DNA of 32,276 nt from Hyphomicrobiales bacterium. GTDB taxonomy: Bacteria; Pseudomonadota; Alphaproteobacteria; Rhizobiales; Hyphomicrobiaceae. Both the position numbers and the translations under genes were made by a program. Shown here in pieces: positions 1 to 8,555 of the stretch. The notes beneath the pieces were generated by a model that did not search any database, was not told the origin of the DNA, and saw nothing but the letters and a program-made list of their open reading frames with translations. The stretch's first letter is position 1, and every line of letters starts with the position of its first letter. The DNA lies in the NCBI GenBank assembly GCA_017304275.1, contig JAFKKW010000458.1, forward strand, positions 1 through 32,276, in the 5' to 3' direction.

Positions 1-932
1 ATCGTGCGGCCGGCGTCAACCTCGTTTCGATCGGCGTGCAGTCGCTCCGCGATGCGGACCTGAAGCGCCTCGGCCGCATCCACTCCGTCGCGGAGGCGAA
101 GGCCGCCGTCGACATCGCGCATCGCACCTTCGATCGCGTCTCGTTCGACCTGATCTACGCCCGGCCCGAGCAGTCGCCCGCTGCGTGGCGCACCGAGCTC
201 ACCGAGGCGCTCGCCATGGCAAGCGGTCACCTCTCGCTCTACCAGCTCACCATCGCGCCCGAGACGCGTTTCGCCGACCTCTACGCCAAAGGCCGCCTTG
301 CAATCCCCGCCGCGGAGGCCGCGCACGACCTCTACGAGCTGACCCAGGAGCTGACTGCAGCGGCTGGGCTCAACCAATACGAGATCTCGAACCACGCGCG
401 CGCCGGCGAGGAGAGCCGCCACAATCTGCTCTACTGGCGCTACGGCGAATACGCGGGCGTCGGTCCCGGCGCGCACGGACGCCTGCGGACGCCGGCCGCG
501 CACCTTGCCACCGTCACGGAGCGCAACCCCGAGCGCTGGCTCGAACGCGTCGAGACGGCGGGCCACGGCATCGCCGAAACGGAAACGCTGTCACCCAAGG
601 CGCGTACCGACGAGATGCTGCTGATGGGCCTGCGCCTCGACGAAGGCATCGATCTCGACCGGCTCGCGGGCATCGGCGGCTTCGCGCCGAGAGCCGAGAC
701 ACTGGCCGGATTGATCGAGCAGGGCGTCATCGAGCGCCTCCCGCCACCCGCAGCCGAGCCCGGACTGGACGAGATCCGCGCCTGCCTCGGTCCAGGCCTT
801 CCGCCATCGACCGAGGTGCGCTCCTTCGGCCGGGTCCGCGCCACCGATGCCGGCCGCTTCATCCTCAATCAGCTCGTGCTGGAATTGTCGGCGAGCCTCG
901 TGCCGGTAACGCACACGGCGTCGCCGCGATAG
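1..932 (+). CDS. hemW: Radical SAM heme chaperone HemW (HemN-like), 5' end outside the window
   Basis: Motifs S(I)GVQS, SFDLIYARP, HLSLYQLTI, YEISNHA, HNLLYW, GVGPGAHG and LMGLRL are typical of HemW/YggW. The frame is open from the window start. Confidence 0.9.
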   Translation, partial: RAAGVNLVSIGVQSLRDADLKRLGRIHSVAEAKAAVDIAHRTFDRVSFDLIYARPEQSPAAWRTELTEALAMASGHLSLYQLTIAPETRFADLYAKGRLAIPAAEAAHDLYELTQELTAAAGLNQYEISNHARAGEESRHNLLYWRYGEYAGVGPGAHGRLRTPAAHLATVTERNPERWLERVETAGHGIAETETLSPKARTDEMLLMGLRLDEGIDLDRLAGIGGFAPRAETLAGLIEQGVIERLPPPAAEPGLDEIRACLGPGLPPSTEVRSFGRVRATDAGRFILNQLVLELSASLVPVTHTASPR

Positions 933-1089
933 ACATTTCTCCCGCCGCCCACTAATCAGCCCGCTGGGGCACGTCGTTGCGAACCGAACCGTCTCCCGCC
1001 CACACTATGGCCAGATCAAGTCCGGCCATGACGGGTGGATCGCGCGTGTTTCATCAAAGCAAACGCCCGGGCATCGGGGGAGCACTGGC

Positions 1090-1668
1090 ATGCGGCGGCT
1101 ATACGATTGGATGATGGCGAAGGCCCGCAGCGAGCGCGCCCCGCACGCGCTGTTCTGGGTCTCCTTTATCGAGAGCTCGTTCTTCCCCATTCCGCCGGAC
1201 GTGATGCTGGTCCCGATGGTGCTCGCCAACCGCCTCAAGGCCTGGTGGTACGCGACCGTCGCCACGCTTGGCTCGGTCATCGGCGGCGTGCTCGGCTATC
1301 TCATCGGCTACTTCTTCTTCGAGAAGATCGGCGAGCCGATCCTGGCGTTCTACGGCAAGGCCGAAAGCTTCGGCGAGTTCACGAGCTGGTTCAACGAGTG
1401 GGGCGTTTGGATCCTGATCATCAAGGGCATGACGCCGTTCCCTTACAAGGTGCTGACCATCACCGCGGGCGTGACGCACATGCCGCTCATCGAGTTCATG
1501 ATTGCGAGCGTCATCGCGCGTGCCATGCGCTTTTATCTCGTCGCCGGCCTCCTCTATTTCTTCGGCGAGCCGATCCGCGAGTTCATCGAGAAGCGGCTGA
1601 GCCTGGTAACCACGGTTTTCGTTGTGCTTCTGGTCGCGGGCTTTATCGCGATTAGATACGTGTTCTGA
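1090..1668 (+). CDS. YqaA/DedA (VTT domain) membrane protein
   Basis: SFIESSFFPIPPD and TPFPYKVLTITAG motifs, hydrophobic helices, GGGGAG RBS upstream. Confidence 0.9.
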   Translation: MRRLYDWMMAKARSERAPHALFWVSFIESSFFPIPPDVMLVPMVLANRLKAWWYATVATLGSVIGGVLGYLIGYFFFEKIGEPILAFYGKAESFGEFTSWFNEWGVWILIIKGMTPFPYKVLTITAGVTHMPLIEFMIASVIARAMRFYLVAGLLYFFGEPIREFIEKRLSLVTTVFVVLLVAGFIAIRYVF

Positions 1669-1707
1669 ACCGGCCTCCCGGAGGGGCCGCCGGCGCGAGG
1701 AGTATGA

Positions 1708-2232
1708 GTGATGCTGTTGTCTGACACGCCGCAACGGACGGCCGCTTACCGCTACGGCGGTCTCGCGCTCTTTCTCGCCACCGCCGTCATCCTGACCGCG
1801 CTCGGCTTCGAGTATCTCGCCGGCTACGCGCCGTGCCCGCTCTGCCTGCTGCAGCGATACGCCTACTACGCGGGGATTCCGCTTCTGTTCGTCGCCATGG
1901 CGCTCACCGCCGAGATGCCGCGCGTCGCCGCCTTCATCTTCCTCGCCGTCGCGCTCGCATTCCTCGCCAATGCCGGTCTCGGCGTCTATCACGCGGGCGT
2001 CGAATGGAAGTTCTGGCCGGGGCCCGTCACCTGCGGCACGGCACAGGCGTTGCCGACCAATGCGTCCGATCTTCTGAGCAGCCTCGGCACCACCCACGTG
2101 CCCCGCTGCGACGAAGCCGTCTGGACCTTTGCCGGCCTCTCGATGGCGGGCTGGAATGCGATCGTGTCGTTCCTGGCCTTCGTCCTGGCGCTCAAGGCAG
2201 CCTTCCTGGCGGCAGCGACCGAGGCCGATTAG
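1708..2232 (+). CDS. dsbB: Disulfide bond formation protein B family
   Basis: GYAPCPLCLLQR (CxxC), YHAGVEWKFWPGP, second Cys pair (C...PRCD) and GLSMAGWN; four TM segments. Confidence 0.88.
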   Translation: MMLLSDTPQRTAAYRYGGLALFLATAVILTALGFEYLAGYAPCPLCLLQRYAYYAGIPLLFVAMALTAEMPRVAAFIFLAVALAFLANAGLGVYHAGVEWKFWPGPVTCGTAQALPTNASDLLSSLGTTHVPRCDEAVWTFAGLSMAGWNAIVSFLAFVLALKAAFLAAATEAD

Positions 2233-2429
2233 ACGGCTGATTCAACGTCTTCCGGTTATCAACAACAGACGCCGGTCGAACAAAAATCATGCGCGTAGAA
2301 GCCCTTGCGCACGCTGCATGTGGCCGTGTCGCATCAAGTCAAGATCATTTCTTGGACAAGACGTTTTTGCGCCCTCGCGTGGCCACAGTGTCACGGTTAA
2401 TTGTCATCATTCGCGGAACACAAAAGGAA

Positions 2430-3340
2430 CTTCTGTTGTGAGCGTACCGCGTCGGGAGGGAGTGTCGAGGTCGTGTGAGTCCGTCGCGCAACAGGCGACG
2501 GATGTGCCGGCCGGGACAGCGAATTTCCCGAGAGTTGAGCAGAAGGTGAAGGCCTCGCCCTCGTTGGGCGGGTTTTCAACAGCAGTTCGTTCCGCGATCC
2601 GGAACCCTTTGAGTGAGCGTTGCGTCAGTAGCGTACCGAGTGCCGTTGCGTTGCGTAAGCGTGAGTTGCGTACCAGTCAGTTGCGTACCTTTGAGTGGCG
2701 TACAAGCGTACCGCGTCGAGTAACTGCGTACCCCCCTGCATCCCCCAAGGACACGCTTGCCGGCGTGTTCGAACGAATGAAGCGAGCCGCCCGGACGAAA
2801 AAGTTCGCGTGTATCTCCGAGCGGCTCGCCCCCCGGTCCTGCGTTTGAGTTCCAACGTAATGCGTCGCCTGTGTCCCCGCGTATGCGTGCAAGCGTAAGC
2901 GTTCGACGTCACGCGCCCGCGGCAAGGCAACAGCACGCGTAACAGTAGCAGTGAGAGTGAAGTGATGCCGTTTGAAGAGAGTGCGTGGCGTTCGTTGCAG
3001 GACGTCGTTGGCAGCGTACTTGAAAGCGCTGCGGCGGCCCAGCCCAAGCAGCGGTAAGCGAGCGCGAGACGACGTACGGGAACTGGTCGGCTCCCGGATG
3101 ATGCGTATCTCCGACCACGAAATTCTGAGGCCGCGGACCATGGTCGGTTCGAAAGGTCTCGAACGGTAAGGCAAGCATACCGGACGCCTGACGGACAGTC
3201 CAAGTTGGTGTCACATGAACCGGTCGCGCGTAGTGGCACTGAAGAGCCGGTGTGCTTGCCCCCTAGACGATGGCTTCGGACCGACCGGTCCGAAGCAGTG
3301 AATCACCGGTCTCCTATTGACCGCTTTGCGTAGCAGTAGA
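2430..3340 (+). ncRNA. Candidate large structured non-coding RNA or long 5' leader with reiterated GCGUA motifs
   Basis: No convincing long ORF. About 15 GCGTA copies on the + strand and at least 8 stem-loops, several with + strand G-U pairs. Boundaries approximate. Confidence 0.4.
2965..3057 (+). CDS. Putative 30-aa small protein MPFEESAWRSLQDVVGSVLESAAAAQPKQR
   Basis: ATG 2965 to TAA 3055-3057, purine-rich upstream sequence (GTGAGAGTGAAGTG), amphipathic-helix pattern. Below the ORF-track cutoff. Confidence 0.4.
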   Translation: MPFEESAWRSLQDVVGSVLESAAAAQPKQR

Positions 3341-3355
3341 CATCAGGAGCGATCC

Positions 3356-3571
3356 ATGATCCCCGGGCATATCAATTCGATCGAGTGGCATCAGGCCATC
3401 GGCATCGCGCGTCAGTCGTGCGCCCGCTTTTTCCGCGACGGTGGAACGGCGAAGGACGCCATGCGCGCATTCGGCGCCGACGCGGCGGGCGAGGATGCCG
3501 CAGATTGGGGAAAGGCCGTCGAGGCCATCGCCTACGTCTTGTGCGCAAGACCCGAAAAGCGCGCTGCCTGA
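3356..3571 (+). CDS. Small hypothetical protein (71 aa)
   Basis: AGGAG RBS 6 nt before ATG 3356, host-like codon usage, followed by an intrinsic terminator. Confidence 0.75.
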   Translation: MIPGHINSIEWHQAIGIARQSCARFFRDGGTAKDAMRAFGADAAGEDAADWGKAVEAIAYVLCARPEKRAA

Positions 3572-3617
3572 CGGCACGCGCCCCTGAGACGACCACTTCG
3601 TAAGACCTTCCAATCTC

Positions 3618-3643
3618 GGCCCCGGCAACGGGGCCATTTTTTT
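3618..3643 (+). terminator. Rho-independent terminator
   Basis: GGCCCCG-GCAA-CGGGGCC stem-loop followed by ATTTTTTT. Confidence 0.85.
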
Positions 3644-3650
3644 GCGCATC

Positions 3651-3736
3651 CGGATACCGGCCTCCGCCGGTGTGACGTGAACGAGTTGAAGCCGCCCACC
3701 ACTCACGACGTCATCCCGGCGAAGGCCGGGATCCAG
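3651..3736. repeat. Inverted pair of REP-like palindromes
   Basis: 3709-3736 CGTCATCCCGGCGAAGGCCGGGATCCAG, plus a reverse-oriented relative at 3651-3677 (rc CGTCACACCGGCGGAGGCCGGTATCCG). Confidence 0.75.
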
Positions 3737-3786
3737 ATACGTCGAAATTGACGCAGCTGCGCATCCTCTCGAGAACCCGCCGCACG

Positions 3787-4347
3787 CTAAGGCTCGAGCT
3801 CGGTATCCCAGTAGAGATAGTCGAGCCAGCTATCGTGCAGGTAGTTGGGCGGGAACAGGCGTCCGTTGCGATGCAGCTCGAACACCGTCGGCCGATAGGG
3901 AGGCTGATGGGGCCTCATGCCCGCATCCCACGGCATCTCGCCACCCTTCTTGAGATTGCAGGGCGCGCACGCCGTCGTCACGTTGTCCCAGCGCGTCTGT
4001 CCGCCGCGCGACCGCGGGATCACGTGATCGAACGTGAGATCGTCCCGACAACCGCAATACTGACACGAAAAACGGTCCCGCAGGAACACGTTGAACCGCG
4101 TGAAGGCCGGATAAAGCGCTGGTTTGACGTAGGTTTTTAGCGAGACGACGGACGGCAGCCGCATCTCGAAGCTCGTGCTCCGCACCGTGCGGTCGTACTC
4201 GGAGACGATGTTGACGCGATCCAAAAAGACAGCCTTCACCGACTCCTGCCAGCTCCAGAGCGACAATGGATAGTAGCTCAGGGGCCGGAAGTCGGCGTTG
4301 AGAACCAGTGCCGGAAAGGACTCCGGCGTGGCAGCATGAGCGTTCAC
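3787..4347 (-). CDS. HNH endonuclease (McrA-like, conserved alphaproteobacterial type)
   Basis: LVLNADFRPL, RFNVFLRDRFSCQYCG, TFDHVIPRSRGG, WDNVTTACAPCNLKKG. Confidence 0.92.
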   Translation of the reverse strand: MNAHAATPESFPALVLNADFRPLSYYPLSLWSWQESVKAVFLDRVNIVSEYDRTVRSTSFEMRLPSVVSLKTYVKPALYPAFTRFNVFLRDRFSCQYCGCRDDLTFDHVIPRSRGGQTRWDNVTTACAPCNLKKGGEMPWDAGMRPHQPPYRPTVFELHRNGRLFPPNYLHDSWLDYLYWDTELEP

Positions 4348-4521
4348 TTGCTTGCTTCCAGTCGGTTCGTCGAATCGGGGGCGTCACCCCCCGATTGGCG
4401 TGCGGATACTAGCGACGCATGTCATCTCTGTGAAGGTCTCTGGCCCCAATTGGGACTTTCGCCGTCAGAACAGCGCGATGCTGCTGATTTCTACGGTGAA
4501 AATGGGGATTTGGATGACTGC

Positions 4522-5238
4522 TCACGGCAGCGGATCGCGATGAGCGTAGAACGACCACAGCAGCCGCGCCGCAACCCCGCGCCAGGGCCGCCAGCGCTCC
4601 GCGATCTCGGCGAGCCCCTGCATGTTGGGTCGCTCGTCGAGCCCGAAGGCCCGCTGCACCGCAATCTGCAGCGCCAGATCCCCCGCCGCGAAGCCGTCCG
4701 CATGACCAAGGCAGAACATAGTGTAGATGTCCGCGGTCCACGGCCCGATGCCGTTGATGGCAAGAAGTGCGGCGCGCAGGTCGTCATGCGCGAGCGGCGC
4801 CTCGAGGTCGAGCGCGCCGGTCACGATGGCGTCCGCGACCGCTCTCAGCGTCTTGACCTTGCCCTGCGAAAGCCCTGCGCCCCTGAGCGCTCCCACATCC
4901 GCCGCCAGCAGCATCGGCGCATCGAACGGATCGACGACGATCTCCACCCGGTTCCAGATCGCGCTCGCGCTCGCGATCGAGAGCTGCTGGCCGACCACCA
5001 CGCGCGCCAGGCCGGCAAATCCGGGTATATGCCGCCGCAGCGGTGGATCGCCCACGGTATCGTGCACGCGCTTCATCACCGGACACAGCTTGCGCAACGC
5101 ACGCGCACCGGAACGAATGTCGGCCGACGTCTCGATCACGCGGACACGCGCACGACCACGTCTTGCCTTCGGAGCTGATGCTTTTTGTGGAAGAGGTCGC
5201 TTCGGCACGGCGCGGTCGCGCTCCTCGCTTTTCGTCAT
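4522..5238 (-). CDS. alkA: DNA-3-methyladenine glycosylase II (HhH-GPD family)
   Basis: VVGQQLSIASA, GLSQGK, HhH motif INGIGPWTADIY, GDLAL and WRPWRGVAARLLW. Start placed at ATG 5238, not 5943. Confidence 0.85.
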   Translation of the reverse strand: MTKSEERDRAVPKRPLPQKASAPKARRGRARVRVIETSADIRSGARALRKLCPVMKRVHDTVGDPPLRRHIPGFAGLARVVVGQQLSIASASAIWNRVEIVVDPFDAPMLLAADVGALRGAGLSQGKVKTLRAVADAIVTGALDLEAPLAHDDLRAALLAINGIGPWTADIYTMFCLGHADGFAAGDLALQIAVQRAFGLDERPNMQGLAEIAERWRPWRGVAARLLWSFYAHRDPLP

Positions 5239-5304
5239 CCCCGACCCAAAGTAGGGTGCGGGAGCCGGGATTGGAATGTCTTGCAGTGAGGGCGTGGTGA
5301 CGTC

Positions 5305-5853
5305 ATGGGATACGACAGGAAAAGACACGGCAAACGGCGCGCGGTGATGATGAGCATCGCGTGCGTGACCATCGGCTTCGCAACCGCAGCGATTGCAGCC
5401 GGCCAGAAGCTCAGGCAGTGGGAAACGATCCAGAGCGAGCGCTACGGATTCATGATCGCCTATCCCGGCTCGGTTTTCGCCCCGGGCACGACCGAGGCCA
5501 CCGAAAACGGTCATGTCCTGATCTCGCGCGACGGCGGGGCCCGGCTTCTCGTCGCCGCGTTCGACAACGAGGAGCAGGCGACGCTCGCGGAATACCGCCG
5601 GCAGATCCTGGCGGAGAATTACAGCGGAGCCGACCTCGACTACGCCCCCGTGAGGAAACGCTGGTTCGTCGTTTCCGGCACGCGCGGCACGATGCACTTC
5701 TACGAGCGGGTGAGCTTCACCTGCGGCGGCAAGCTGATCAATAGCTGGGCCCTGCTCTATCCCGCCGCCGAGCGTCACGTCTACGACCGCATCGTCGAGG
5801 CCATCGCACGCACCTACGCGCCGGGCGCTGGACGCAACGGCCAATGCGATTGA
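5305..5853 (+). CDS. Hypothetical exported protein
   Basis: Signal-peptide-like segment (..FATAAIAA), then YGFMIAYP / WFVVSG / YDRIVEAI domain. Start could be 5347. Confidence 0.7.
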   Translation: MGYDRKRHGKRRAVMMSIACVTIGFATAAIAAGQKLRQWETIQSERYGFMIAYPGSVFAPGTTEATENGHVLISRDGGARLLVAAFDNEEQATLAEYRRQILAENYSGADLDYAPVRKRWFVVSGTRGTMHFYERVSFTCGGKLINSWALLYPAAERHVYDRIVEAIARTYAPGAGRNGQCD

Positions 5854-5900
5854 GCGCAATGGACGCGAGACGCGAAGCGCGACCTCACGCCGGAGCGTAT

Positions 5901-5990
5901 CTGGACCCCGACCTCCGTCGGGGTGACGTTGATGAGGAGGCAATCGGCGTCCAACAAACGTCCGTCATCCCGGCGCAGGCCGGGATCCAG
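5901..5990. repeat. Second inverted pair of REP-like palindromes
   Basis: 5963-5990 CGTCATCCCGGCGCAGGCCGGGATCCAG (1 mismatch to 3709-3736) and a reverse copy at 5901-5928 (rc CGTCACCCCGACGGAGGTCGGGGTCCAG). Confidence 0.8.
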
Positions 5991-6052
5991 ACACGTCTCC
6001 GCAGGGCGCAACGGTCCTCGCTCCTCGCCAGCCTCCGCGGAAAAGGCACGGA

Positions 6053-6973
6053 ATGACCGCGCCCCGTCCTGTCCTGCGTTTCGCACCGAGTCCCAACGGC
6101 GAGCTGCACCTCGGCCATGCACTATCCGCACTCGTCGGCTTCGACATGGCCGAAAGGCTCGGCGGCCGCTTCCTGGTGCGCATCGAGGACATCGATACCG
6201 CGCGCTGTCGCGAGGAGTACGTCACGCAAATCTTCGAGGATCTCGCCTGGCTCGGCATCACGTGGGAGGAGCCCGTGCTGCGCCAGAGCCTCCACATCAC
6301 GACCTACAGCGCCGCCTCCGACTGGTTGCTGAAGCTCGGCCTTCTCTATCCGTGCTTCGCGACCCGCACCGAAATCAGCGAGGCGACGGAGACCGCGCCG
6401 GGCCCGCCGGCGCTCGACCCTGACGGCACGCCGCTTTATCCCGGCTTGCACAAGGCCCTGCCGAAGAAGGAGATCGCCGCGCGCCTCGCCCGCCACGAGC
6501 CGTTCGCGCTGCGCCTCGACATGGACCGCGCGCTCGACGCCCTCGAAGGCATTACAGGCGAGCGCCACGTCACGTTCAAGGAGCTCGATGCCGACGGCAA
6601 TCCGCAGGTGATCCAGATGAACCCGGCCGACTGGGGCGACACCGTGATCGTGCGCAAGGACGTGCCGACCAGCTACCACCTCGCCGTCACCGTCGACGAC
6701 GCGCGCCAGGGCGTGACGCACGTCACGCGCGGCCGCGATCTCTATGCGGCCACGAGCCTGCACCGCCTGTTGCAGATCATCCTCGGCCTGCCCGAGCCGC
6801 TCTACCATCACCATCGGCTACTCGCGGGCCCGGACGGCCACAAGCTCTCGAAAAGCGCGGGCGACACGTCGCTGCGCGCCCTTCGCGAGCAAGGCATCGA
6901 TAGGTTGCAGCTCCGACAACGCGTGGGGCTTGCCGACCAAACGCCCGCGGGCGCGCGCGGGAATCTTTCGTAA
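6053..6973 (+). CDS. gluQ: tRNA glutamyl-Q(34) synthetase GluQRS
   Basis: RFAPSPNGELHLGH (HIGH), RIEDID, SYHLAVTVDD, VTRGRDL and KLSKS. About 300 aa with no anticodon-binding domain. Confidence 0.92.
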   Translation: MTAPRPVLRFAPSPNGELHLGHALSALVGFDMAERLGGRFLVRIEDIDTARCREEYVTQIFEDLAWLGITWEEPVLRQSLHITTYSAASDWLLKLGLLYPCFATRTEISEATETAPGPPALDPDGTPLYPGLHKALPKKEIAARLARHEPFALRLDMDRALDALEGITGERHVTFKELDADGNPQVIQMNPADWGDTVIVRKDVPTSYHLAVTVDDARQGVTHVTRGRDLYAATSLHRLLQIILGLPEPLYHHHRLLAGPDGHKLSKSAGDTSLRALREQGIDRLQLRQRVGLADQTPAGARGNLS

Positions 6974-7052
6974 ACCAAATTTTACGATGGTGAACCATTG
7001 GGTTGTCTCTTAGACTTCAACACTGAGTTCCACCCGAATCTCGGGCGCCGAC

Positions 7053-8555
7053 GTGAAAAAGAAGCCGCGCAAGTCACGGCCGAAGGCGATGAAGCCCCGT
7101 CGAGAGGCAACGGCGGCTGCCTGGAAGCACGCCCAAACGCCATCCCGTCAGTCGTTGCGTTATGCGCCTCCCGCCAGCGCCGCAGGCGCGCGCTTCGCGG
7201 ACCTCTTCGCCTCGCATGCGGGACGCATCGAACGGACCCTTGCATCCCTCGTCGACGGCGCCAGACGCCTGCCGGCAGAGATGGGCGTGCGAGCCGGCCG
7301 CCTGCGCGCGGGAGCCCATGCCGCAGCCCGCACCTATTCGCGCGACGAGCGCGAGGCGCTCCTGCTCTTGTTCCTGCCGTTCCTGCTCGTCGCCTCGGCC
7401 ATGGTCGTCCACCAGTCCGTGCGCATGCTGCAGAACTATCTCGCCGCCATCGCCATGCCCGACGACGAGATTTCGCCGCTCTCGCCCGGCGTGATGCGGG
7501 ACGTGCGCATCGCCGCCGTCCCTCAAACGCGCGCGCAGGAGGCACCACCGGCGCGAACCGATCTGGCCGCGATCTCCACGGCATCCGAAAGCCGCGCCAT
7601 CACCGTGGCAGGGACCGCCCTCGCGGAAGCGCCCGCCGCGACCGGCCCCTCGGCGAGAGCCGTACCGGCATCCGACCTCGGGCGCCCCGCGGATACGCAC
7701 GGCATGGAGCTCGCGTCCGCGCCGTTTTCCTCAGCCGTTGCGGCACAGGAGGAAACGCAGTTCGCCCTGCTCGGCCCCATCGGCGACATGGGCCACAGCG
7801 TACCGCAGCGCACGCCGGAACCGGTCGAGACGCTCGAGGTCGACGATAACGGCAAGCCCATCCGTGCCGGCATTTGCGCCATCGACCAGACGCCGCGCTC
7901 GCCCGCGGCATTGCCGCTCGGCGAGACCGTGTCGCTTGGCGCCGACACCTTCGGCCTGCGCCTGGCCAAGGCGGCCGAAGCCCAGACCGCCTCGTTCGTC
8001 ATCTACAATGACGCCTACCGCACGATCTCCTATCCCATGGGCGACGTGAACGGCCTGTTCGGCGTCTGCACCGACGTCGTCGTGCGCGCCTACCGCGCGC
8101 TCGGCCTCGACCTGCAGGCACTCGTGCAAGAGGCTCGCGCCGGCACCGGCGACCGGAGCATCGACCACCGCCGCACCGAGATCCTGCGCCGCTTCTTCTC
8201 GACCCAAGGCGAAAGCCTGCCGATTACGAGCTACCCCGAGGATTATCGCCCCGGCGACATCGTCACGTACTACCGCCCCCAGAACCGCCGCACGCGCGCG
8301 CATATCGCCATCGTGTCGTCGGTCATGGCGCCGTCCGGGCGGCCGATGATCGTCCACAACCGCGGCTGGGGGCCCGAGCTCGAGGACGCGCTCTTCGTCG
8401 ACCAGATCACCGGCCACTATCGCTATCGCGGCCCCGTCCAGACGCGCAACGCCGGCAGCGGCCGTGCTGCGTTGCCGGCCTGGACCGCAACGGCGCCCGT
8501 TCACCCGGCGACCTTCAACGCGGAGCGCGACGCTCCGCGTCCGTCACCGAACTGA
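7053..8555 (+). CDS. DUF1287 (YijF-like, NlpC/P60-related) domain protein with N-terminal TM anchor and long linker
   Basis: YPMGDV..GVCTDVVVRAYR, DRSIDHRR, PGDIV, HIAIVS, IVHNRG, ITGHYRY; TM helix LLLLFLPFLLVASAMVV. Confidence 0.8.
   Translation: MKKKPRKSRPKAMKPRREATAAAWKHAQTPSRQSLRYAPPASAAGARFADLFASHAGRIERTLASLVDGARRLPAEMGVRAGRLRAGAHAAARTYSRDEREALLLLFLPFLLVASAMVVHQSVRMLQNYLAAIAMPDDEISPLSPGVMRDVRIAAVPQTRAQEAPPARTDLAAISTASESRAITVAGTALAEAPAATGPSARAVPASDLGRPADTHGMELASAPFSSAVAAQEETQFALLGPIGDMGHSVPQRTPEPVETLEVDDNGKPIRAGICAIDQTPRSPAALPLGETVSLGADTFGLRLAKAAEAQTASFVIYNDAYRTISYPMGDVNGLFGVCTDVVVRAYRALGLDLQALVQEARAGTGDRSIDHRRTEILRRFFSTQGESLPITSYPEDYRPGDIVTYYRPQNRRTRAHIAIVSSVMAPSGRPMIVHNRGWGPELEDALFVDQITGHYRYRGPVQTRNAGSGRAALPAWTATAPVHPATFNAERDAPRPSPN

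Follow-up and report, generated by a model that had tools for sequence, protein, structure and literature searches.

The tract between dsbB and the gene for a 71-aa protein in the Hyphomicrobiales DNA analysed here (the window, 32,276 nt) carries a conserved unit of ~1.2 kb, which is headed by a LexA-type box, holds three small reading frames and combines covarying hairpins with a GCGU/GAGU motif reiterated on one strand. In our best explanation, to which we give an even chance, the RNA of this unit would act in trans as a decoy for a predicted RNA-binding protein and would at the same time be the message for small proteins. The RNA family is limited to part of the order and is undescribed, while being of a known general kind. 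The original prediction of a large regulatory RNA is therefore retained as regards conservation, structure, + strand, reiterated motif and lack of an Rfam family, and is given up as regards its 'non-coding' nature in this genome; the LexA-type and DnaA-type boxes and the two covarying domains did not feature in it.

At the locus, a hemN-like gene, dedA and dsbB precede the tract, which is followed by the 71-aa ORF, a hairpin resembling a terminator and an HNH gene in convergent orientation. The closest relatives are Hyphomicrobium, and cultured species including H. zavarzinii carry the unit. A direct count confirms that GCGTA occurs 15 times on the + strand of 2430-3340, exactly at the positions originally given, with seven of the copies inside 2631-2730; its complement TACGC is found 0 times in 2430-3340, in agreement with the proposed strand specificity. 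The density is indeed above chance: 2000 dinucleotide shuffles of the tract gave a mean of 1.8 copies and a maximum of 7, and any 5-mer reached 15 copies in only 1/2000. The tract is also the densest cluster of the genome, the runner-up 900-nt stretch in the 3.48-Mb assembly having 7 GCGTA. The exact 14-nt repeat reported at 2441-2454 and 2705-2718 is real. The motif is broader than first described, as the tract contains 29 GCGT against 4 ACGC and 11 GAGT against 0 ACTC; its general form is GCGU/GAGU (G[AC]GU). The core repeat cluster (2611..2730, + strand) consists of imperfect 15-nt units at 15-nt spacing and reaches 19 G[AC]GT per 200 nt, compared to 10 at the next best place in the genome, and a variable GCGU-rich linker (2849..2964, + strand) has 6 GCGT in 116 nt and aligns poorly across homologues. 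Pooled over 66 homologous leaders, GCGT occurs 1717 times against 705 expected, its complement ACGC 120 times against 255 expected and TTGCGT 418 times against 4 reverse copies, with a modal motif spacing of 5 nt; the loci are kin and not independent, and such pooled counts, here and below, are descriptive, not p-values, and overstate significance.

The absence of a known Rfam family was borne out for positions 1-8000 of the window, which gave no match at E<=1 bar one chance match outside the tract, and none of 16 homologous loci came near the gathering score of an Rfam model. The housekeeping large RNAs RNase P, two-piece tmRNA and 6S sit elsewhere in the own genome and in two others (G000, G020, G022). 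Searches of the open-access literature gave no description of the locus; a listing in a transcriptome supplement is possible.

RNA-library contigs from four of 23 listed runs point to a likely single transcript of ~1.2 kb (2420..3647), presumably from the + strand, with a 5' end that probably lies at ~2410. In run X2 one contig covers 2430-3647 and links all three ORFs, run X1 gave contigs 2430-2742 and 2713-3647, and the contigs of X8 and of X3 (another study, possibly DNA) begin at 2420 and 2423, respectively. X1, X2 and X8 come from one study, and the contigs carry no strand, true ends or level and may include DNA carry-over; as contig depth (179 in X2; 375 over 2430-2742 and 34 beyond in X1) cannot rank expression, neither the depths nor the lack of cover in stretches next to the unit count as evidence here. 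An X1 contig has a 1-nt deletion at 2923. A pattern scan found an intrinsic-terminator-like hairpin with a T run at 3618..3643 (+ strand), shortly before the position (3647) where the contigs of both X1 and X2 stop. The RNA-library cover fits one transcript from promoter to terminator. Long inverted repeats are present at 3645-3741 and at ~5960-6000, before a gluQ-like gene; many foreign contigs clip there, and the pattern suggests REP-like elements.

The promoter block (2371..2415, + strand) is found in 66/68 family regions. A sigma-70 scan gave no consensus promoter, and we therefore infer the -10 element at ~2398-2403 and the start at ~2410. GGTTAA in this block (~2395-2400) is, we assume, a CtrA-half-site-like element; the window has no more than this half site, and sites that we take to be of the full CtrA type (TTAA-N7-TTAA) occur in the promoter regions of several distant loci (L108, L109, L118, L066, L088, L133 and L180). 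Directly downstream of the block lies a LexA (SOS) box, GAAC-N7-GAAC (2416..2430, + strand). The strict box has the same place in 45/66 loci, compared to 0.1 expected, and a relaxed box is found in 48/66 family loci. It is missing in 18/66, and in families other than the own one only 5/27 loci have a promoter LexA box and 22/27 lack it, so SOS control is not universal. The alphaproteobacterial LexA box is GTTC-N7-GTTC (PMC8565304, PMC3323433, PMC12700426). The identical box precedes lexA in 3/4 relatives and, in the own genome, an ATP-dependent ligase gene and an imuA-like gene (the latter below the family cut-off), and recA of the own genome has a GAAC-N7-GTAC variant upstream. A lexA gene scores above the cut-off in 4/4 relatives and is not assembled in the own genome (G000). 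The conserved promoter box is thus likely, by its sequence and company, an element of the alphaproteobacterial LexA regulon that LexA would bind. Two other assignments considered for 2416-2430, an ECF promoter and a ribosome-binding site only, were replaced by the LexA box, the second half of which likely doubles as the ribosome-binding site of ORF-A.

A DnaA-box-like 9-mer with one mismatch (2256..2264, no strand assigned) is located ~116 nt upstream of the promoter block, scored against what we take to be the DnaA-box consensus. DnaA-type boxes (<=1 mismatch, <=150 nt upstream) are present in 44/65 loci compared to 1.6 expected, most of them at 115-118 nt. A second DnaA-box-like 9-mer lies within ORF-A at 2573-2581 and in several same-genus loci, and the recA promoter (L193:364-410, G000:C293) shows a DnaA-box-like site together with a word, ACGGTTAA, that it has in common with the tract promoter. 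Strict LexA-type boxes also precede a TIGR04283-like glycosyltransferase gene (G000:C454:2272) and a small unknown ORF (G000:C243). One locus has an extra 0.7 kb between dsbB and the promoter block (L025:1063-1770), with an apparent HTH antitoxin-like ORF.

Two domains of the RNA are supported by covariation. Domain A (2750..2829, + strand) comprises two hairpins with RGU-N4-GCGU in the second loop, where this genome has GUGU. In its alignment (52 of 55 profile matches, three near-duplicates dropped) 91.6% of cells are paired and 14/16 pairs have two-sided changes, which 0-1/500 shuffles equal, and the loop has GCGT in 43/52. Domain C (3170..3260, + strand) is non-coding and comprises a 14-bp closing stem and a 7-bp inner hairpin with the loop RGU-N3-GCGU. 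Its alignment of 68 sequences was made with no structure model from 75 matches (six near-duplicates and one partial match dropped; 7 rows from other families) and is 96.2% paired, with two-sided changes in 18/21 pairs; 0/500 shuffles equal this, and slid controls reach 27-45%. GCGT and RGT are each found in 68/68 domain C loops, a slightly circular count as the row-picking profile includes these letters. In both domains G-U far outnumbers A-C (67 vs 16 cells in domain A, 189 vs 10 in domain C), and the RNA is therefore assigned to the + strand. A purely protein-coding explanation of domain A was rejected: the apparent amino-acid covariation tracks base pairs, and in some loci the frame is interrupted. 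Of 12 aligned sequences, the window and L030 alone have a hairpin insertion at 3270-3310, between domain C and the 71-aa gene.

The original view that the motifs lie mostly between hairpins holds in part. Local folding speaks against it, with an unpaired probability of 0.33 at motifs compared to 0.40 over the leader as a whole. The core cluster, 2606-2735, however, folds no better than shuffles (z +0.7) while its flanks have z ~ -3, and in both covarying domains the conserved GCGU is located in loops. The global fold of 2400-3360 is unremarkable (z -1.4, 20 shuffles), and structure is thus visible per domain and through covariation only.

The claim that the tract has no credible long ORF did not survive, as it contains a conserved GTG frame at 2438-2848 (136 codons, ORF-A) and an ATG frame at 2965-3057 (30 codons, ORF-B), both on the + strand. 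ORF-A has a low-complexity Ser/Val/Arg-rich body and a basic, probably helical C-terminal end that overlaps domain A. In 13/13 loci with a recognisable start (61 loci scored), start and domain A are separated by a whole number of codons, at 12 distinct lengths, and its variable part, domain A excluded, has 31 stops in frame compared to 121 and 214 in the other frames (55 loci), against 161/176/181 by frame in a downstream control region. Its amino acids are weakly constrained, with a pN/pS of 0.58 over 17 genus-level rows and 0.84 over 44 family rows. In L024, 147 nt of ORF-A (49 codons) are missing at 2452-2600 with the frame preserved, and the joined form is also a contig in X3.

ORF-B (2965..3057) encodes 30 aa with the core W-x-x-L-x-D-V-V-x-x-V-L, probably an amphipathic helix to judge by its residue pattern, and its block is present in 52/68 regions. 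Over these 52 loci the 12-codon core has a pN/pS of 0.38 in frame compared to 1.03 and 1.74 in the other two, a comparison that somewhat favours the frame because peptide likeness served to anchor the core. Column entropies at the three codon positions are 0.81/0.52/1.39. These patterns indicate that ORF-B is under purifying selection. It is polar outside the 12-residue core, without a match in Pfam, NCBIfam or PDB, and the RNA contigs that cover it, being unstranded, would not reveal an antisense RNA such as a type I toxin-antitoxin system has. Its likeness to the last helix of the 71-aa protein is not significant (E 0.56). Weak ORF-B matches occur elsewhere in the genome, outside the locus. 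The ORF-B-like proteins of family f10 (L133:1271-1474, L135:1214-1414, L180) end in QLNLF/QLSLF, which we take to resemble a sliding-clamp-binding motif; such ends would fit a role in a replication checkpoint. In L087, QYEFG follows the ORF-B-like helix. With a frame under selection inside a structured RNA, the transcript is, as far as its sequence tells, likely a dual-function RNA with predicted translation.

The 71-aa protein gene (3356..3571, + strand) is preceded by AGGAG at 3345 and encodes an all-helical protein (AlphaFold pLDDT 85). It has no match in Pfam or NCBIfam, DUF1127 included. In fold searches, Foldseek gave none at E<=0.001, the best VIA match had Z 5.4 with an rmsd of 3.4 over 52 residues, and the ESM Atlas matches are all below 0.9 and hypothetical. 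Two long matches resemble TPR-type repeat proteins by eye. Most homologues keep two Trp and two Cys, and most end in Ala-Ala, ends that we assume to resemble ClpXP degradation tags.

A DNA match to the tract is found in 24/25 same-genus genomes. Upstream regions were examined at 21 relatives' loci and at 49 of the other 138 matches to the 71-aa gene (29 best, and 20 weaker on long contigs); all of them span 0.7-1.9 kb, and all are GCGT-rich (16-47 GCGT vs 1-10 ACGC). Removal of 3 duplicates left 68 family regions, and iterated profiles detected domain C in all 68, the promoter block in 66, domain A in 63 (a few of them weak matches) and the ORF-B block in 52. A single match to the 71-aa gene was obtained in each of 139/151 family genomes, and the gene is present in 30/201 genomes of the order. 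Domain C occurs in 17/151 genomes of the order search and was found in 0/150 other genomes of the class; it is single-copy in the own genome and, wherever checked, always at this locus. The tract is lacking in 39/40 dsbB-downstream regions from other genomes of the order, and its absence from most other families of the order may be why the RNA was missed.

The unit is modular. In family f10 the order is an ORF-B-like gene, domain C and a repeat tract; in three AT-rich genomes this tract is non-coding (longest stop-free run 36-49 codons) and has 26-35 GCGT+GAGT against 1-3 reverse complements, with GAGU as frequent as GCGU. The 71-aa gene is found in 0/3 f10 genomes at least 95% complete. Five loci of family f24 have the 71-aa gene behind a short repeat-free spacer of 174-352 nt. 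The f10 tracts, non-coding and without a 71-aa gene, therefore show that the repeats persist as RNA sequence even where both a frame and the downstream gene are lacking. The 71-aa protein is, for the same reason, unlikely as an obligate partner of the repeats, as f10 has the RNA without the gene and f24 the gene without the repeats.

The alternative to be taken most seriously, although we consider it unlikely, is that a protein binds the repeats and hairpins only in cis, so that ORF-A, ORF-B and the 71-aa gene would be controlled in their translation, processing or stability. In 44/54 loci a G[AC]GT is found no more than 45 nt from the 71-aa start, compared to 30% by chance at the genome rate, and motifs are also found just after the ORF-A start and in the ribosome-binding region of ORF-B; their presence near all three translation starts fits cis control and counts against a decoy. 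One RNA contig joins the three ORFs, domain C has its single copy here, and the long leaders of LexA-regulated dinQ offer a precedent (PMC3567139). On the other hand, the number of GCGT per region exceeds what one start site needs, and the f10 tract and domain C lie downstream of the sole small ORF, with no 71-aa gene after them. A trailer on the 3' side could still affect stability in cis. The separability of RNA and 71-aa gene in f10 and f24 nevertheless argues against a purely cis-acting leader.

An improbable second possibility is an RNA-RNA scaffold, in which GCGU/UGCGUA would self-pair via G-U wobble into multimers or condensates instead of binding protein. By its sequence GCGU is a wobble palindrome, TGCGTA occurs 228 times against 0 reverse copies in the homologous leaders, the motifs are predicted to be largely paired, and the invariant loop GCGU could form kissing contacts. 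GAGU, however, is not self-complementary and is yet enriched across homologues (636 vs 453 expected) and equal to GCGU in f10. Furthermore, GCGC and ACGT, which are perfect palindromes, are depleted about twofold, and the core cluster is no stabler than shuffles.

The repeats could also be a by-product of coding, with a three-small-protein operon in which they stem from low-complexity ORF-A and the hairpins are ordinary stabilisers. The ORF-A frame is strongly conserved, gene finders have called it in 45 database proteins, which belong to no family, and GCGT in ORF-A is distributed over the frames as 42/71/113, the 113/226 in one frame serving as Arg codons. The strand bias is nevertheless equal outside ORF-A, where the stretch from domain A to domain C has 2.66 GCGT vs 0.15 ACGC per 100 nt; it also persists in non-coding f10. 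The codons are skewed to rare motif-forming ones (CGT, AGT, TTG and GTA/GTT; compared to the genome, Arg CGT 0.46 vs 0.10, Ser AGT 0.25 vs 0.03 and Leu TTG 0.49 vs 0.07), and several lineages break the frame yet keep the hairpins, with domain A pairs surviving indels or stops in L055, L057, L059, L065 and L079. The presence of the motif in all ORF-A frames, the rare-codon skew and the non-coding f10 tracts lead us to the view that the motif is selected independently of coding; the by-product explanation, very improbable in our estimate, is largely refuted by the f10 tracts. The least credible idea, that the tract is a DNA element of one-strand protein sites near DnaA boxes (for titration or unwinding) with an incidental RNA, draws on the conserved upstream DnaA-type boxes and the second one within ORF-A, and founders on the compensatory changes with G-U preferred over A-C, which indicate selection on the + strand RNA, and on a unit that spans promoter block to terminator.

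For a protein decoy that is also a message, the following mechanism can be proposed. LexA would sit just behind the presumed start, and DNA damage or replication stress would lift the repression; through the DnaA-type box 116 nt upstream, control would also be linked to replication. The RGU-N3/4-GCGU loops of domains A and C may be high-affinity sites for a single-strand RNA-binding protein, and the repeats ~5 nt apart would load further copies of that protein and titrate it away from its mRNA targets, in the way CsrB acts on CsrA. Translation of ORF-A might protect the RNA from premature termination or strip off bound protein. The frame is kept open while its codons are skewed to rare motif-forming ones, and translation through the repeats therefore probably outweighs the peptide. 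ORF-B and the 71-aa protein, on both of which selection is seen, would be SOS effectors. The invariance of GCGU in the loop of a covarying hairpin counts for a decoy. A search of the own genome for a regulon gave no second GCGU-dense leader, and six cold-shock-gene leaders have just 2-5 motifs per 300 nt, with no target regulon visible; this, and repeats that are not predicted to be single-stranded, count against it. Presence in untreated sludge RNA libraries is a misfit with tight repression, except if a stable RNA or leaky expression is assumed. CsrA (PF02599), found in 0/41 family genomes (39 with a completeness of at least 90%), is not the binding partner, and the 71-aa protein is an unlikely one; neither TRAP nor DUF1127 was found in the own genome (89% complete). 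A more far-reaching proposal, tentative and possible rather than probable, is that Hyphomicrobiaceae and allied families have an unrecognised global post-transcriptional switch, in which a G[AC]GU-reading protein would be titrated by a translated, LexA/DnaA-controlled 1.2-kb decoy with two new small checkpoint proteins.

If the decoy is true, it points to a new sequence-specific RNA-binding regulator in a lineage that lacks CsrA, and the RNA would fill the class of dual-function decoy/mRNA, which a review counts among those yet to be discovered (PMC10339803). The alphaproteobacterial SOS response would gain an RNA arm as well as new small proteins, and with the global switch DNA damage and replication state would be tied directly to protein sequestration by RNA. 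Even under cis control, domains A and C constitute a new family of structured RNA, and the locus adds two gene families that lack annotation.

Several known systems resemble parts of the unit. The trp leader bound by TRAP has (G/U)AG triplets at 5-nt spacing, and the modal 5-nt spacing of a G-started motif here would suit a ring-shaped binder; here, in contrast, GCG dominates GAG, and the own genome, as noted, yielded no TRAP. The Rhodobacter ccaF1-ccsR operon combines a small protein with repeat sRNAs. The unit is similar in being alphaproteobacterial and in having a stress-type promoter and a ~70-aa protein co-transcribed with repeated RNA motifs, and differs in its motif, in a 71-aa protein without a DUF1127 match and in the lack of an Rfam match. 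The tisB/istR locus has a LexA-regulated peptide gene with a long leader. The dinQ/agrB locus is described as a LexA-regulated small-peptide transcript with an SOS box and a long leader (PMC3567139). The SOS box, the long transcript and the ~30-aa product (here ORF-B) are in common with dinQ and tisB, whereas ORF-B looks amphipathic rather than transmembrane, there are three ORFs, and no family match was obtained. We know of no counterpart to the repeat array in dinQ/tisB-type systems.

The 5' UTR of Salmonella fimAICDHF is an mRNA leader that sponges CsrA (PMC13501541). As there, the decoy, predicted in our case, is built into a coding transcript; in contrast to it, the motif is another one, and the decoy overlaps an open frame and can shift to the 3' side (f10). 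CsrB/CsrC and RsmY/RsmZ carry many copies of a short one-strand motif, some of them in hairpin loops (PMC10339803). The likeness to CsrB drawn in the original prediction is plausible, and in f10 the conserved hairpin is followed by a repeat tract that is genuinely non-coding; the likeness does not extend to membership of the CsrB/RsmZ family, as GGA motifs, a CsrA gene and an Rfam match all fail. The common feature is a reiterated one-strand motif with copies in conserved loops. The motif itself is GCGU/GAGU and not GGA (17 GGA vs 15 TCC in 2410-3355), no CsrA was found in the 41 genomes, and the RNA is ~1.2 kb long, predicted to be translated and preceded by a LexA-type box, a translated and SOS-boxed design that is unusual for such an RNA. 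The reiterated motif with its loop copies makes it plausible that the RNA works like a protein-sequestering RNA, which would bind and titrate a protein in trans.
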